From Oscillospiraceae bacterium (GTDB taxonomy: Bacteria > Bacillota > Clostridia > Oscillospirales > Ruminococcaceae): a DNA stretch of 64,000 nt. The position numbers and the translations under genes were made by a program. Positions 8,187 to 37,749 of the stretch are shown here, piece after piece. How positions within the stretch are numbered: position 1 is the first letter of the stretch; the number at the start of each line of letters is the position of its first letter. The notes below the pieces were generated by a model that saw only the letters and a program-made list of their open reading frames with translations, was not told the origin of the DNA and did no database searches. Location of the stretch: contig JAZURJ010000035.1 in assembly GCA_045606085.1 (NCBI GenBank), positions 9,032 to 73,031 of the forward strand, given 5' to 3'.

Positions 8187-9587
8187 TTATTCTACAAATG
8201 TGCTGAGCTCGCTTTCGATAACGCCCTCGTACTCTGTGCGGAGCTGTGTCCAGCTCTTCTGGTTGTCGCCCTGCTCGAAAGCAAGGTTGATCACCATATC
8301 GTCGAGGATGGTCGTGAGGTTCTGGCTGATACCGCCGTGAACTGTAAGTACCATATTGTAATCAGCTACATTCTCGAAGGATGTAAGGAATTCGTACTGC
8401 TCTTCGCTGTACTGCTTGTCGTTCATGATACTTTCCTTAACGACAGCCTTGAGCTCAGGATCTGTACCGCAGCGACGCATGATATTGATGAAAGCTGCTG
8501 CACCCTTTACGTTCTCGGAGCCCTTGGGTACCATGTAACCAAAGGATGTTGTGCCGTAATAATACTCATCTGCACTGGGATCTCTGGGATAAGGAACAAA
8601 GCCGAACTCATACTCTTTATACAGCTTACAGAAATCGGTGATCTTCCACTGGCCGACGCCGAGGAATGCCACCTTACCGGAAACGAGAGGTGCAGACTCA
8701 TTACTCCACATACCGTCACCGCGAACCGCAAGACCCTCCTTACGGAGATCTGTAAGGAAGTTTGTTGCACGCTCAACTTCGGGTGTGTTCATGTTATTTA
8801 TGATCTTGCTGTCATTGATACCGATGAGAGGCGTGCCTGTGGATGTGATGATATCATGACCAAGCAGACCGTAAACACCACCGACTGCATCGGGATCTCT
8901 GTCCATGAAGTCGATCATTATGCCCTTGAATGTTTCCCATGTCCAGTTGCCCTGATCGTAAAGATCCTTGGGATCATCAAGACCGAGACCATCGAACTTG
9001 GTCTTGTTGTAAATCAGGCAGTTGGGAAGCGCATTAGCTGTAAAGGGATAGTAATAATGGCCGCCGTTGTATGCGTACTGCTCAACCAGTACGTCGTAGC
9101 CTGCCCACTGTGGCTGTGTGAGATCTATGTAGTCGGTAAGATCCTCAAATACGTTCTTGGAGATGAGGTTCGGGAATGTGATGTCTTCCTTATCGAACAG
9201 GTCGGGAGAATCACCGCTGGCGATCAGTGTCTGGAGCTTGTCGATACGCTCGCCCCATGCACACTGCAGGTAATCGATCTTGCCGCCGTAGGTCTCCTCA
9301 AAGAGCTTTACGCCGGGCTTGATATCGCCCGCAACTCTCATATCATAGTGACCGAAATAAACGAGATTAGGGTTCTCAAGTGTTGCGTTCTCAACGAAAT
9401 CCGTAATGTCAACGGGGTTCTGGATATCGTCATCCAGAGTATTTGTTGTTGTGGTAGCAGAGGTCGTGGTGTTAAGACCGCCGGGGGAAGTAGTTGCTCC
9501 GCCCTGAGGCTGTGATTCATCACAAGCTGTAAGGCTGAGAACCATTGCTGCACACAGGGCAGCCGCTGAGATCCTTTTGAAATTCAT
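8187..9587 (-). CDS. Extracellular solute-binding lipoprotein (ABC transporter family 1, sugar-type), no cognate permease genes nearby
   Basis: Lipobox LSLTAC followed by a Thr/Ser-rich linker. A large aromatic-rich SBP-like body. The second ATG (MNFKR) has AAAGGA 8 nt upstream, so it is preferred over 9596. Confidence 0.8.
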   Translation of the reverse strand: MNFKRISAAALCAAMVLSLTACDESQPQGGATTSPGGLNTTTSATTTTNTLDDDIQNPVDITDFVENATLENPNLVYFGHYDMRVAGDIKPGVKLFEETYGGKIDYLQCAWGERIDKLQTLIASGDSPDLFDKEDITFPNLISKNVFEDLTDYIDLTQPQWAGYDVLVEQYAYNGGHYYYPFTANALPNCLIYNKTKFDGLGLDDPKDLYDQGNWTWETFKGIMIDFMDRDPDAVGGVYGLLGHDIITSTGTPLIGINDSKIINNMNTPEVERATNFLTDLRKEGLAVRGDGMWSNESAPLVSGKVAFLGVGQWKITDFCKLYKEYEFGFVPYPRDPSADEYYYGTTSFGYMVPKGSENVKGAAAFINIMRRCGTDPELKAVVKESIMNDKQYSEEQYEFLTSFENVADYNMVLTVHGGISQNLTTILDDMVINLAFEQGDNQKSWTQLRTEYEGVIESELSTFVE

Positions 9588-9659
9588 AATGACCATCCTT
9601 TCAGATAATATTTGATATCGGGTACGCCCCGATACAGAGCACCGTTTCTTACTAATATA

Positions 9660-9688
9660 ATAATATCATTTTTATCGCTCTATTTCAA
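9660..9688 (-). promoter_or_regulatory. Sigma-A type promoter for the solute-binding protein gene
   Basis: Minus strand reads TTGAAA, 17 nt, TATTAT, with TGA just upstream (extended -10). Confidence 0.55.
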
Positions 9689-9850
9689 GTAGAAATTATT
9701 AACGGAGTTTCAAAAAACGAACATACACAAAACTCGTCGGCAGTGAAACACGATAAAAAATCAGATGAAACGATGGTTTTGCATTGCCTTGCGTGTTCGT
9801 TTTATCGAAAGTGTCGCTGATACCTTTATCGCTCGATATCGGATGATATA

Positions 9851-9879
9851 TTGACAAGGCATTTAAGAAATGATATGAT
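9851..9879 (+). promoter_or_regulatory. Sigma-A type promoter for the macro-domain gene
   Basis: TTGACA, 17 nt, TATGAT, with an upstream TG (extended -10). Confidence 0.6.
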
Positions 9880-9991
9880 TAAAACATAAGAATTCTGTAA
9901 AATATTATAACACTACTGCATATAATCAACATTAACACAACTGACATCATACAGCACAAAACAGACATAAAATGCGGAAAGGAGTACACAT

Positions 9992-11062
9992 ATGCCGCTT
10001 GAACTGATACGCAATGATATAACCAGAATGCAGGTGGACGCAATAGTTAATGCTGCAAACAGCTCCCTGCTCGGAGGCGGAGGCGTTGATGGTGCGATAC
10101 ACCGTGCCGCAGGTCCTGAGCTGCTTGAGGAATGCAGGACTCTTGGCGGCTGTGCAACAGGTGACGCAAAGATCACCAAGGGCTACAAGCTGCCCGCAAA
10201 GCACATCATACATACTGTCGGACCGATCTGGCACGGCGGTAATAAAGGCGAAAAGGAGCTTCTTACGTCCTGTTACAGACGCTCGCTGGAAACAGCCACC
10301 GATAACGCCTGCGAAAGCGTTGCATTTCCGCTGATATCCGCAGGCATCTACGGATACCCCAGAGCTGACGCCATACGCGTCGCAGTGGATACCATCAGCG
10401 ATTATCTGACGGCACACGACATGACAGTATACCTTGTTATCTTCGATACAGACAGCTTCGAGATAAGCTCAAAGCTGTTCAGTGATATCAGACAGTTCAT
10501 TGACGACAACTACGCCGATGAACACGATGACTTCAAATACCGCAGCAGCAGACTGGACGCTGAAAGACGTATGTTCAGGGCATTCAACAATGCTTCGATG
10601 CCATCCATAAAGCAGAAAGTCGCAGCGGATATGTACATGGCGGAGAAGGAAGTACATAATGCATCAGAGACAGTATGCTGCAACGCCGCTGCGTCAAGTC
10701 TTGAGGATGCTCTTGGCAAGCTGGATGAGAGCTTCTCGCAGATGCTGCTGAGAAAGATCGACGAAAAGGGCATTACAGATGCACAGTGCTACAAAAAAGC
10801 AAACATCGACCGAAAGCTGTTCTCGAAGATCCGCGGAGATATCCACTACCGCCCCAGCAAGCCGACAGTTCTGGCATTCGCAATAGCTCTGGAGCTTCCG
10901 CTGAACGAAACTAAGGATATGCTGATGAAGGCAGGGTATGCACTATCTCGTTCCAGCAAGAGCGATATCATCGTGGAATACTTCATACAGCACGGAAACT
11001 ACAACATCTTTGAGATAAACGAGGCACTCTTTGCATTCGATCAGAGCCTGCTGGGTGCATAA
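9992..11062 (+). CDS. Macro-domain (ADP-ribose binding/hydrolase, YmdB/MacroD-like) protein with C-terminal HTH-like domain
   Basis: N-terminus [26 protein letters not shown] and [15 protein letters not shown] are classic macro motifs. The C-terminal ~110 aa ([23 protein letters not shown]...[11 protein letters not shown]) looks like an XRE-type HTH. RBS GGAAAGGAG. Confidence 0.85.
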
Positions 11063-25940: not shown

Positions 25941-25969
25941 TTGACAAATATGCTTTGTCGTGTTATAAT
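25941..25969 (+). promoter_or_regulatory. Perfect consensus sigma-A promoter of rplJ-rplL
   Basis: TTGACA, exactly 17 nt, TATAAT. Confidence 0.8.
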
Positions 25970-25975
25970 AATCAT

Positions 25976-26099
25976 GCTGTTCTAAAGACAGCAGGCTGCC
26001 GTAAGGCTTTAATGGTTTGTCCGCCTGCCGAGGAATAGGAATCGAAATGATATTTCTGCGTTCCTTTCTGTCTTTGTTCAGAGAGGGATTTTTTATTTT
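25976..26099 (+). promoter_or_regulatory. Ribosomal protein L10 leader with attenuator terminator
   Basis: ~170-nt structured 5' UTR ahead of rplJ. It ends in the hairpin CCTTTCTG / CAGAGAGG (26063-26086) plus the T-run GATTTTTTATTTT. Firmicute rplJL operons are known to carry an L10(L12)4-binding leader. The family assignment was not verified by a covariance model. Confidence 0.55.
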
Positions 26100-26144
26100 C
26101 CATGCTTTGAAACAGCGTAAATTTAACAAGAAGGAGTGAATTTA

Positions 26145-35101: not shown

Positions 35102-35130
35102 TTGAAAAAAAACGCAGTATCGTTTATAAT
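35102..35130 (+). promoter_or_regulatory. Sigma-A type promoter of the cysES leader
   Basis: TTGAAA, 17 nt, TATAAT. Confidence 0.7.
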
Positions 35131-35136
35131 AAATAC

Positions 35137-35625
35137 ATGAATAGTGATAAAGGCTATCACGCAGTCAGAGTAACCTCTCTCCCGTCCCACAGAGAGCCGC
35201 AGCAGGTGGAAGTGCGGCGGACGGAATTGGTGAAAGTGCGGCTGCCAGCCGATGAGGGGAACAGAAGGCTCAGTATCCTCATCCGTATCTCTGCGTTAAA
35301 GGGTAATGAGGGACTTTCGGGTTTGACGAAGCAGGTACTGCTCTCCATCTTCGGGTGGCAGGAATGCTGCAGATGCGAGGAAAAATCACCGAAGGCGTAC
35401 TTTGTGTACGTCGAGAGTGGTTTTGACGAAGCAGGTGCTGCTCTCCATCTTCGGGTGGCAAGAATGCTGCAGATGCGAGGAAAAATCACCGAAGGCGCAC
35501 TTTGTGTACGTCGAGAGTGGTTTTGACGAAGCAGGTGCTGCATTATTGACAGCCGAAAAAGTCCGAAGCGAAGTGGAACCGTGATCTAGCATCGCCTTCG
35601 CACCATCTGGTGCGGAGGTTTTTTT
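35137..35625 (+). promoter_or_regulatory. T-box riboswitch leader (tRNA-Cys type) controlling cysE-cysS, unusually long
   Basis: Stem I motifs AGAGUA (35166-35171) and CAGAGAGCCGCAGCAGGUGGAAGUGCGG (AG bulge / distal loop), with a candidate UGC specifier at 35237-35239. T-box and antiterminator: GCGAAG-UGGAACC-GUGAU..AUCGC-CUUCGC (35568-35601), where the UGGA bulge fits a U73 discriminator. A competing terminator CCUUCGCACC-AUCU-GGUGCGGAGG plus U7 sits at 35595-35625. Confidence 0.85.
35319..35541 (+). repeat. Tandem repeat inside the T-box leader: 2.23 copies of a 100-nt unit
   Basis: Copies at 35319-35418, 35419-35518 and partial 35519-35541. Copies 1 and 2 differ at 4 positions by manual alignment. 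The partial copy is identical to copy 2. Confidence 0.95.
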
Positions 35626-35654
35626 ATTGCACTTCTTTACAAGGGAGGTACATT

Positions 35655-36317
35655 ATGTTCAAAAAATTAAGAGAGGAGATAAACTCCATTCGTGAGCGTG
35701 ACCCTGCGGTACGTTCTGCGTGGGAGGTATACTTCCTCTACCCGTCGTTCAAGGCCGTAAGAGCATACCGGCGTGCACACTGGTGGCATGAACGCGGTTT
35801 TTATTTCATCGCACGCTGGATATCCCAGAATGCACGAAACCGAACAGGCATCGAGATACATCCGGGTGCTCAGATAGGAAAAGGTCTGTTCATCGACCAT
35901 GGTGCAGGCGTTGTCATCGGTGAAACTACCATCATCGGCGATAACTGCACGCTGTATCAGAACGTTACCCTCGGTGGTACAGGTAAGGACGTGGGCAAGC
36001 GACACCCCACACTCGGAAACAACGTTATGGTCGGAGCGGGTGCGAGAGTGCTCGGTCCGTTCAAGATAGGTGACAACTCCAAGATAGCCGCAAACGCAGT
36101 GGTGCTGGAGGAGGTCCCCCCGAACTGTACGGCGGTGGGCGTGCCTGCCAGGGTCGTCAAGCGTGACGGCATAAAGGTGGGCGTATCCCCGAACAGCGAT
36201 CTTGACCAGATCCATATTCCCGACCCTGTTTCCCAGCTCCTGTGTGAGCATCTCACTCACATCGAACGCCTTGAAAAGAAGGTCGCAGAGCTGGAAGAAC
36301 GTTTAGAGAACGATTGA
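35655..36317 (+). CDS. cysE: Serine O-acetyltransferase
   Basis: IRERDPAV, IEIHPGAQIG, hexapeptide repeats GAGVVIGETTIIGDN..LYQNVTLGG. The ATG at 35655 follows AAGGGAGG. Confidence 0.95.
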   Translation: MFKKLREEINSIRERDPAVRSAWEVYFLYPSFKAVRAYRRAHWWHERGFYFIARWISQNARNRTGIEIHPGAQIGKGLFIDHGAGVVIGETTIIGDNCTLYQNVTLGGTGKDVGKRHPTLGNNVMVGAGARVLGPFKIGDNSKIAANAVVLEEVPPNCTAVGVPARVVKRDGIKVGVSPNSDLDQIHIPDPVSQLLCEHLTHIERLEKKVAELEERLEND

Positions 36318-36357: not shown

Positions 36358-37749
36358 ATGCAGATCTACAACACCATGACAAGACAGAAAGAAGAGCTCA
36401 GACCGCTCACCGACGGCACAGTAAAGATCTATGCCTGCGGACCCACCGTTTATAATCTTATCCACATCGGCAACGCAAGAGCACTGTGCGTATTCGATAC
36501 ACTGCGTCGCTATCTTGAGTTCCGCGGCAACAAGGTGTTCTATGTCCAGAACTTCACGGACGTTGATGACAAGATCATCAAGAAGGCAAACGAGCTTGGC
36601 ATCACTGCTCATGAGGTGTCCGAGAACGCTATCAAGGAGTACTTCACCGACGCTGACGGTCTGAATGTACGCAGAGCGGATGTTCATCCCAAGGTAACAG
36701 AGAACATGGATATCATCATCGATATCGTAAAGACACTCATCGACAAGGGCTACGCATACGAGGCTGACGGCGATGTTTACTTCTCCACAGCAAAGTTCAA
36801 GGAGTACGGCAAGCTCTCCCATATGCCCCTTGAGGACCTGCAGGCAGGTGCGAGAATCGAAGTGGGCGACAAGAAGCGTGACCCCATGGATTTCGCAGTG
36901 TGGAAGGCGGCGAAGGAAGGCGAGCCTTACTGGGAGTCTCCTTTCGGCAAGGGCCGTCCCGGCTGGCATATCGAGTGCTCCGCTATGTCCCGCCATTACA
37001 TCGGTGACACCATCGACATCCACGGTGGCGGTGCAGACCTCATCTTCCCTCACCACGAGAACGAGATCGCACAGAGTGAATGTGCAACAGGCTGCCCTCT
37101 CGCGAATGTGTGGATGCATAACGGTATGCTGAATGTTGACGGCTCCAAGATGAGCAAGTCCAAGGGCAACTTCTTCATGGTGCGTGATCTCTCCGCAGAA
37201 TACGGCTATGAACCTATCCGCTTCATGCTGCTGTCCGTACATTACAGAAGCCAGCTCAACTACACTCTCGAGGTAATCGAAAGCTGCAAGGCTGCTCTTC
37301 AGCGTATGTACACCTGCCGCGACACGATGGCTCGTGCACTGGACGCTGCTCCCGAGGGTGCTGCCAATGAAACCGTTCTCGCTGACGTAAAGGCTGCCCG
37401 TGAGCAGTTCATCAAGGTAATGGACGATGACTTCAACACAGCAGACGGTATCGCCGTAATATTTGAGCTTGTCCGCAAGATAAATACCGCCATCGCTTCC
37501 GGAAATGCAACAAAGGGCGATATAAAAGCATATCAGGATGAATTTACAGCATTGACAAATGTGCTCGGTCTGCTGTATAATAATAAGGATGAAGAGATTC
37601 CTGCGGAGATCACCGAACTGATCGAGCAGCGTAAGGCTGCAAGAAAGGCAAAGGACTTCGCACTCGCTGATGCCCTGCGTGACAAGATCACTGCTATGGG
37701 CTACATCGTTGAGGAAACTCGTCAGGGTACGATCGTAAAAAAGGCATGA
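36358..37749 (+). CDS. cysS: Cysteine-tRNA ligase
   Basis: MQIYNTMTRQKE, HIGNAR (HIGH motif), KMSKSKGN (KMSKS motif), GWHIECS. The ATG at 36358 follows AAGGAGG. Confidence 0.97.
   Translation: MQIYNTMTRQKEELRPLTDGTVKIYACGPTVYNLIHIGNARALCVFDTLRRYLEFRGNKVFYVQNFTDVDDKIIKKANELGITAHEVSENAIKEYFTDADGLNVRRADVHPKVTENMDIIIDIVKTLIDKGYAYEADGDVYFSTAKFKEYGKLSHMPLEDLQAGARIEVGDKKRDPMDFAVWKAAKEGEPYWESPFGKGRPGWHIECSAMSRHYIGDTIDIHGGGADLIFPHHENEIAQSECATGCPLANVWMHNGMLNVDGSKMSKSKGNFFMVRDLSAEYGYEPIRFMLLSVHYRSQLNYTLEVIESCKAALQRMYTCRDTMARALDAAPEGAANETVLADVKAAREQFIKVMDDDFNTADGIAVIFELVRKINTAIASGNATKGDIKAYQDEFTALTNVLGLLYNNKDEEIPAEITELIEQRKAARKAKDFALADALRDKITAMGYIVEETRQGTIVKKA

Follow-up and report, generated by a model that had tools for sequence, protein, structure and literature searches.

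A tandemly repeated insert in Stem III of a cysES T-box leader is probably a small hairpin-targeting mobile element carried as a passenger

The leader of the cysE-cysS genes of an Oscillospiraceae bacterium (GenBank assembly GCA_045606085.1; contig JAZURJ010000035.1, positions 9,032 to 73,031, a stretch of 64,000 nucleotides referred to here as the window) is a T-box riboswitch within which a unit of 100 nt is repeated in tandem, each full unit carrying a UUCG hairpin and a cluster of UGC triplets, the codon recognised by tRNA-Cys. The locus therefore raises the question of whether the repeat belongs to the cysteine sensor or is foreign to it. In the initial annotation three possibilities were offered, namely (a) a neutral minisatellite tolerated in a linker, (b) a spacer that tunes the timing of transcription, and (c) extra docking or decoy sites for tRNA-Cys. 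We consider it highly probable that the unit is a copy of a small non-autonomous transposon, a miniature element with inverted repeats (MITE) of the IS1182 type, later duplicated in tandem, and that it is a tolerated passenger in Stem III. The genome of the window, designated G000, is a draft metagenome-assembled genome (MAG) of 84 contigs that is 99.67 % complete.

The dimensions previously given for the array proved exact. Tandem Repeats Finder (TRF) reports a period of 100 nt, 2.2 copies and 97 % matches over 35322-35541, and direct comparison places the copies at 35319-35418 and 35419-35518, followed by a partial copy of 23 nt at 35519-35541 with the same sequence as the first 23 nt of copy 2; exactly four positions, 35321, 35337, 35361, and 35398, distinguish copy 1 from copy 2. 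The UUCG hairpin, CCATCTTCGGGTGG, is at 35345-35358 and 35445-35458 and the UGC cluster, TGCTGCAGATGC, at 35365-35376 and 35465-35476, as had been described, and the earlier estimate of about 490 nt for the length of the leader agrees with the positions of a promoter-like site and of a terminator followed by a T-run (Table 1). Two open reading frames (ORFs) of about 129 codons cross the leader on opposite strands, at 35137-35526 (+) and 35157-35543 (-). Because 100 is not divisible by 3, the reading frame of any ORF shifts from one unit to the next, and by the coordinates the plus-strand ORF has the UGC cluster in frame in copy 1 only; both ORFs look accidental, open frames in stop-poor repeat sequence.

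In a local permissive scan the Rfam T-box model, RF00230, aligns with the leader over model positions 1-219 (63.9 bits, E 1.6e-13) and opens a single insertion of 235 nt in the Stem III loop, which locates the interruption of the model. The score lies below the gathering score of 93 because this insertion is penalised, and the T-box was therefore missed in the Rfam scan of the whole window at gathering threshold; the orthologous leaders of congeners that have no insert are 201-212 nt long and score up to 106.6 bits. The repeat had been rightly assigned to the T-box leader but not to the right part of it, since the array is enclosed by the two arms of Stem III and does not occupy a linker joining Stem II to the T-box sequence. 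The specifier UGC and the UGGA bulge agree with the tRNA-Cys pathway, as do the downstream genes, cysE and cysS, and the bulge (35574-35577) fits a U73 discriminator base, the one expected of tRNA-Cys. As read from the sequence, GCGAAG (35568-35573) in the predicted antiterminator is complementary to CUUCGC (35596-35601) in the 5' arm of the terminator, and by this complementarity the antiterminator and the intrinsic terminator are predicted to be mutually exclusive. A search of G000 found no second gene for cysteinyl-tRNA synthetase; because this sole cysS gene lies behind the T-box leader, the leader must still permit read-through. The insert of G000 is predicted to fold into two self-contained arms closed by GGGACU…AGUCC (-101 kcal/mol, z -3.8) and that of a congener, G005, into one long hairpin that extends Stem III (-67.3 kcal/mol, z -6.8). 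In the predicted fold the ends of the insert are brought together and the base of Stem III closes around it, which would leave the T-box core unchanged.

The initial annotation had itself named occurrence at many unrelated intergenic loci as the outcome that would make the unit a generic dispersed repeat, and such loci were found when the genome was searched. A BLAST search with the unit gives partial matches elsewhere in G000 that have in common an invariant GCGTACTTTGTGTACG hairpin and flanking motifs, and together with a covariance model, R1, it identifies about 13 copies on 10 contigs in varied contexts unrelated to cysteine: the gap between groES and groEL (antisense strand), a position upstream of a threonyl-tRNA synthetase-like gene, a position 3' of a tyrosyl-tRNA synthetase-like gene, and convergent and antisense intergenic spots. 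No T-box was found upstream of the threonyl-tRNA synthetase gene beside the copy on contig C82, and among about 110 sampled copies a T-box motif adjoins only those in the cysE leaders of G000 and G005. Matches to R1, at least about 1,600 of them, are present in 99 of the 101 genomes of the genus that were searched; outside the genus, R1 matches turn up in 18 of 120 further genera belonging to the family, and a few more families in the order have them too. When named genomes were scanned for the motif, the carriers proved to be MAGs of uncultured gut Oscillospiraceae or 'Ruminococcaceae', with humans, rabbits, and deer as the hosts. Tandem arrays recur within the element family: there are three units at one locus (L046) and two at each of G065:C87 and G000:C79, the latter (C79:10388-10615, outside the window; 107-nt period, 2.1 copies, 93 % matches) being the copy 3' of the tyrosyl-tRNA synthetase-like gene. 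TRF also reports other long-period repeats in G000, at C52:38504-38838 (146 nt x2.3), C70:29134-29466 (106 nt x3.2), C67:16342-16564 (86 nt x2.6), and C55:155242-155450 (93 nt x2.2), which may be other dispersed-repeat families. A TTTATCG-rich region of the window, 9666-9840, has the 3' tail motif of the family and was considered as a further copy; it was rejected, the best R1 match in 9300-10200 scoring 5 bits at 9404-9442, outside the region.

The family element is 110-134 nt long, non-coding, multi-copy, and dispersed. Aligned copies give a nested architecture in which an outer stem, P0, encloses P1 of about 9-11 bp, an internal loop with the motifs AGAyA.GGAA and GACGCAG, P2 of 7 bp, and an apical hairpin, P3. 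In 40 copies both sides have changed in 20 of the 25 pairs, and 87.8 % of cells are paired as compared with 63.9 % in shuffles, none of 500 shuffles being this high; the signal collapses when the partners are slid. P3 alternates between GCGUAC/GUACGC and GCUAGGC/GCCUGCC around an invariant CUUUGUG loop. Counted on the T-box sense strand, there are 92 G.U cells against 13 A.C cells, although the cells are not independent events, and candidate sources of this asymmetry may be a single-stranded DNA intermediate, a transcript of the element itself, or something else. In alignments of 113 copies the G.U-favoured strand is, in most dispersed copies, antisense to the gene whose terminator was hit (L056:1501-1611 is an example). 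The same internal module is found outside the genus in elements of other construction: in G121, of another genus, it lies in an element of about 160 nt (L069-L071; about 14 copies, 98-99 % identical) with terminal inverted repeats and TTA or TAA flanks, and in G310, of another family, in an element of about 273 nt with different termini (L072-L074; about 16-20 copies, many at contig ends). The internal hairpin module thus seems to move between MITE backbones. One family copy, L200 (G072:C29), has a nested insertion of about 70 nt in the apical P3 loop; its site, the terminator of a conserved gene, is also occupied in G071 and G017, and the flanking hairpin differs in each species.

Evidence that the family is mobile comes from the ends and flanks of its copies. 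In many copies of the genus the hairpin module is preceded, at a distance of 23 nt, by a left motif, CAGCTTGTYGAAAAAGT, which matches the right end CTTTATCGACAGCCTG in inverted form. The G071 copies, located at different sites, are 129 nt long and 96-97 % identical, with the ends AGCTTGTCGAAAAAGT…CTTTATCGACAGCCT, and 5 of the 7 lie between perfect or near-perfect direct repeats of 24-27 nt, a different hairpin at each site. More widely, about 15 of 107 non-redundant copies are flanked, in a fixed geometry, by direct repeats of 17-25 nt, each repeat being a G+C-rich hairpin; in these a convergent gene lies on the 3' side, its end 22-44 nt from the element, and its terminator is the hairpin that has been duplicated, with the T-tract kept only on the copy of the terminator distal to that gene. 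The orthologous empty sites in relatives have a single hairpin. By crude ORF calls, the 3' neighbour is convergent in 54 of 80 scorable copies, with a median gap of 26 nt, whereas a position between two divergent genes is seen in only 6.

A putative parent can be named. Of the 101 genomes of the genus, 7 have transposase genes of the IS1182 family that exceed the curated cut-off of NF033551. At one locus, L262 (G094:C1, 1311-2842), the transposase (324.9 bits; cut-off 270) lies in an insertion sequence (IS) of 1,532 bp with the ends CAGCCTGTCGAAAAAGT and, as the reverse complement, CAGTCTGTCGAAAAAC; its end is identical to the left end of the small element at 16 of 17 positions, and it is flanked by a perfect duplicated hairpin of 21 nt, a pattern repeated at L259-L261. 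The length of the duplication follows that of the hairpin (17-27 bp in the MITE copies) and there is no fixed stagger. The most fitting classification of the family is hence that of a hairpin-targeting MITE of IS1182 type with a structured internal module of its own; it would be derived from these IS, or may be mobilised in trans by their transposase, of which the near-identical copies at different sites in G071 are an indirect indication, and membership of the T-box units in it is suggested by the homology of their internal module to that of copies that possess the ends. A search by termini for an autonomous partner in G121, G310, G071, and G072 returned short elements only. Two candidates for such a partner, a weak IS1182/IS5-like transposase at G072:C70 (DDE_Tnp_1 and DUF772) and an ORF in G071:C78, were rejected for having unrelated ends. 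Self-cleaving ribozymes, group IIC introns, integron attC sites, non-coding RNAs of retrons or defense-associated reverse transcriptases (DRT), IS200/IS605 palindrome-associated transposable elements (PATEs), and CRISPR-like or casposon-like integration were set aside because their size, termini, or flanking signature did not fit.

How the insert has behaved at cysE can be seen by comparison of the congeners. In a first comparison of 16 congener cysE leaders most were canonical, with a short Stem III hairpin, and the closest relative recovered, G005, had a single unit inside the loop of Stem III, its leader being 334 nt long; a wider survey then measured how far the T-box sequence lies from stem IIA/B (Table 1). 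Stem III is empty in some species and occupied in others by the element in either orientation, through independent hits or inversion, and expansion from one unit to two has occurred at least twice, independently. The copy numbers found between species at this site (x1, x1.3, x2.2, and x2.3) are those of a variable-number tandem repeat (VNTR). Thus the copy number does vary between congeners, and the recent expansion that had been proposed from the near-identity of the copies is supported by the presence of one unit in G005, the closest insert-bearing relative. With occupancy, orientation, and copy number all variable, the insert behaves as unstable mobile DNA would and not as a tuned sensor.

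The sequence of events that we propose is as follows. The elements of the family insert at hairpins in the DNA, for the most part those of intrinsic terminators; the cysES T-box offers a hairpin of this kind in its Stem III, and an element would have landed there. As the comparison with relatives suggests, the unit would then have been duplicated head to tail, through slippage or unequal exchange, to give the present 2.2 copies. Each unit is predicted to fold into a long P1-P2-P3 hairpin, and the base of Stem III to close around the whole insert, leaving the T-box core (Stem I with its UGC specifier, Stem II and IIA/B, the base of Stem III, the T-box sequence, and the antiterminator and terminator) intact. 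The leader would keep regulating cysE-cysS, with the insert as a tolerated passenger of VNTR-like instability. Possibility (a) was hence correct with respect to tolerance but not with respect to a local minisatellite, the repeat being, on this proposal, a tandemly duplicated mobile element found throughout the genus.

It should be noted that several observations weigh against this account. The hairpin duplication that marks other insertions is missing from the T-box locus, where a single hairpin contributes both flanks, one arm on each side as an inverted pair; the termini of the G000 and G005 units are degenerate and resemble the IS ends weakly; and the IS and the small element are alike only in their termini of about 17 nt. 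The NF033551 search found no IS1182-family transposase gene in G000, and the copies there are therefore probably old and immobile. A strand-specific structure in the internal module is not obviously needed by a cut-and-paste DNA element. Finally, the insert has been retained in several species, and it may have a secondary function in the leader.

The last of these points is the basis of the alternative that survives best, in which the module has been co-opted and its hairpins serve the leader by lengthening the time of transcription before the decision between antiterminator and terminator, by pausing, by providing a site for RNase III or other processing, or by stabilising the RNA. The position of the insert, in the leader of the only cysS gene and retained in several species of a clade, would suit such a role, and there are precedents: the met T-box of Staphylococcus aureus contains a 150-nt insertion of three hairpins for which roles involving timing and RNase III have been proposed (PMC7913692), and insertions in T-boxes that are specific to a lineage are reported to be able to modulate function (PMC9177973). 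We nevertheless consider co-option unlikely, because presence, orientation, and copy number vary (empty, sense, antisense, and with a 45-nt deletion) while the T-box core is conserved, as neutrality predicts, and because T-box motifs are so rarely the neighbours of sampled copies. The timing spacer of possibility (b) may exist, but nothing that was observed requires it. A bolder version, in which Stem III is a recurrent landing pad whose giant extension has been co-opted in some lineages as a delay, pause, or processing site that retunes the response to tRNA-Cys, and in which, more broadly, IS1182-type hairpin-duplicating transposition proceeds via a selected, folded single-stranded intermediate, is speculative and rather improbable.

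The family could also be primarily a structured RNA, either a small RNA or a cis-regulatory one, that is multi-copy by chance and is not mobile DNA. The strong covariation in all three helices, the invariant apical CUUUGUG and internal-loop motifs, the excess of G.U over A.C cells on one strand, and the sharing of the module by the G121 and G310 elements despite their different termini can all be cited for this alternative. However, no Rfam family matches the stand-alone copies at E <= 1, and over the T-box units the only match besides RF00230 is a chance-level one to rpfG (16 bits). Mobile DNA is what one recognises in near-identical copies within a genome, in target duplications, and in terminal inverted repeats that an IS also possesses; the adjacent gene usually converges on the element, both neighbours are on the opposite strand in 32 of 80 copies, so that the G.U-favoured strand is often antisense to them, and there is no conserved promoter. 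The structured-RNA alternative as such thus appears quite unlikely, but the two readings are compatible, in that a MITE can carry a module that is selected at the level of the single strand.

It is very unlikely that the 2.2 copies are an artefact of assembly and that the true leader has one unit. The genome is a draft in 84 contigs, the G013 contig ends within the homologous array, as would be expected of repeats that disturb assemblies, and metagenome scans yielded nothing related, leaving no independent assembly of the species for comparison. Against this, four positions tell the full units apart, and unique sequence borders the array on both sides; in G052, an independently assembled genome from a different species, this site holds 2.3 copies, against 1.3 in its relative G065; and arrays exist elsewhere in the family (C79 x2.1 and L046 x3).

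The two elements of the unit that first drew attention appear, from their homology, to correspond to conserved parts of the family element and to have nothing to do with tRNA-Cys. The UGC cluster coincides with the 5' arm of P1 and the adjoining conserved CAGAUGC internal loop, and the CCAUC-UUCG-GGUGG hairpin is built by the inner left end of the element (GGGUGGCAAGAA, the family's GGGTGGCGAGAA) together with a linker. The proposal, under (c), that the UGC-UGC-AGA-UGC clusters bind the GCA anticodon and so add cooperativity or buffering is invited by the three in-phase UGC triplets of each unit in a Cys-specific T-box, but it is extremely improbable, because 19 of 106 copies from unrelated loci have the identical TGCAGATGC (and 75 of the 106 have one TGC or more in the homologous segment), the cluster is mostly base-paired in the predicted fold, Stem III of some congeners holds the element in antisense or is empty, and the extra triplets come without a Stem I-like platform.

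The features of the leader and the genes behind it are collected in Table 1. Elsewhere in the window, at 25964-26103 (+), there is a ribosomal protein L10 leader (RF00557, 61.9 bits, above gathering), an ordinary feature.

Table 1. The cysES leader region of G000 (positions in the window) and occupancy of Stem III in cysE leaders of the genus (last column, distance between stem IIA/B and the T-box sequence).
Feature	Position or genome	Strand	Evidence, remarks, or distance
Promoter-like site, sigma-70-type (TTGAAA, 17 nt, TATAAT)	35102-35130	+	11/12 consensus matches; consensus match only
cysES T-box leader (RF00230), full model length, Stem III interrupted	35147-35602	+	Rfam covariance model
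Specifier codon UGC (Cys), Stem I specifier loop	35237-35239	+	Sequence and model alignment (GAAAG-UGC-G, 35233-35240)
Stem III 5' arm (GGGACUUUCGG)	35310-35320	+	Model alignment and fold; partner 35553-35564
Stem III loop insert	35321-35552	+	Leading fragment of ~21 nt identical to the 3' part of the unit, then two full dispersed-element units
Family element unit 1 (P1-P2-P3 hairpin module)	35350-35449	+	Covariance model R1, 77.8 bits, E 1e-19
Family element unit 2, outer stem and right end (…UUAUUGACAGCC)	35450-35561	+	R1, 102.5 bits, E 7e-27
Stem III 3' arm (CCGAAAAAGUCC)	35553-35564	+	Model alignment and fold
T-box sequence, UGGA bulge at 35574-35577	35565-35583	+	Model alignment
Intrinsic terminator, 11-bp stem with 7 G-C pairs (35594-35619), then T-run	35594-35626	+	
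cysE, serine O-acetyltransferase	35655-36317	+	TIGR01172, 231.4 bits, cut-off 210.65
cysS, cysteine--tRNA ligase	36358-37749	+	TIGR00435, 565.4 bits, cut-off 340
Stem III empty (at least 8)	G079, G057, G053, G111, G115, G066, G051, G067		46-74 nt
Stem III sense x1	G005		169 nt
Stem III sense x1.3	G065		216 nt
Stem III sense x2.3	G052		321 nt
Stem III sense x2.2	G000		288 nt
Stem III sense, degenerate copy	G068		149 nt
Stem III sense, array cut by contig end	G013		
Stem III antisense x1	G069		178 nt
Stem III antisense, 45-nt internal deletion	G062, G063		133 nt

The attractive notion of a riboswitch furnished with extra tRNA-Cys codon sites thus gives way to an origin that can be documented. 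The distal end of a T-box Stem III is seen to accommodate over 230 nt of self-folding RNA of foreign origin, whichever way it is oriented, ahead of an essential single-copy aminoacyl-tRNA synthetase gene, a tolerance that should be useful in the engineering and annotation of T-boxes; it should be recognized that leaders bearing such inserts are missed in routine scans because their scores drop below Rfam gathering. The locus provides an example of mobile DNA as a source of lineage-specific insertions in riboswitch leaders, and it adds a family distributed throughout a genus to the sparsely documented IS1182-type elements that target and duplicate hairpins.

Among known systems, staphylococcal elements of the IS1182 family and canonical T-boxes with additional hairpins offer the closest comparisons. 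IS1272 and TnSha1 insert in terminator-type hairpins with little sequence specificity, and one hairpin can be hit repeatedly and in both orientations, with partial deletion of the hairpin and no duplication (PMC4923244). The targeting of hairpins is common to these elements and the present family, whose termini of about 17 nt are those of IS1182-family elements in the genus; in contrast to IS1272/TnSha1, the IS and MITE copies of the genus duplicate the whole hairpin (17-27 bp), whereas the T-box copy does not clearly show either the deletion or the duplication signature, and the covarying internal hairpin module of the small element was not found in the IS of the genus. Stem III of T-boxes is variable in sequence and length, and the unusually long met leader of S. 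aureus has its 150 extra nt in stems L I-III (PMC7913692). That leader and the one with staphylococcal glyS stem Sa (PMC9177973) resemble the cysES leader in being canonical T-boxes lengthened by extra hairpins in a variable region, but those insertions are conserved in their lineage, with proposed functions, whereas the cysES insert lies in the Stem III loop, is polymorphic among congeners, and has an identifiable origin in a mobile element.

The small interspersed repeats known from Firmicutes, such as BOX, RUP, and SPRITE of pneumococci and bcr1 of the Bacillus cereus group, together with the minisatellite-bearing MITEs of Porphyromonas gingivalis (PMC4596501), provide a further comparison. 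Such repeats are about 100-200 nt long, non-coding, intergenic, and hairpin-forming, sometimes modular or tandem, and often co-transcribed with their neighbours (PMC10969869). The present family is unrelated in sequence to all of these repeats and differs from them in duplicating a target of hairpin length as opposed to TA or another short sequence, and in having a putative parent IS family that can be identified. It also resembles the REP/REPIN sequences mobilised by RAYT transposases, which are dispersed extragenic palindromes near the 3' ends of genes that form long hairpins and clusters, but no association with RAYT was seen, although no search aimed at one was made, and the family differs from them in that its ends match those of a DDE-type element of the IS1182 family and that target duplications are present.

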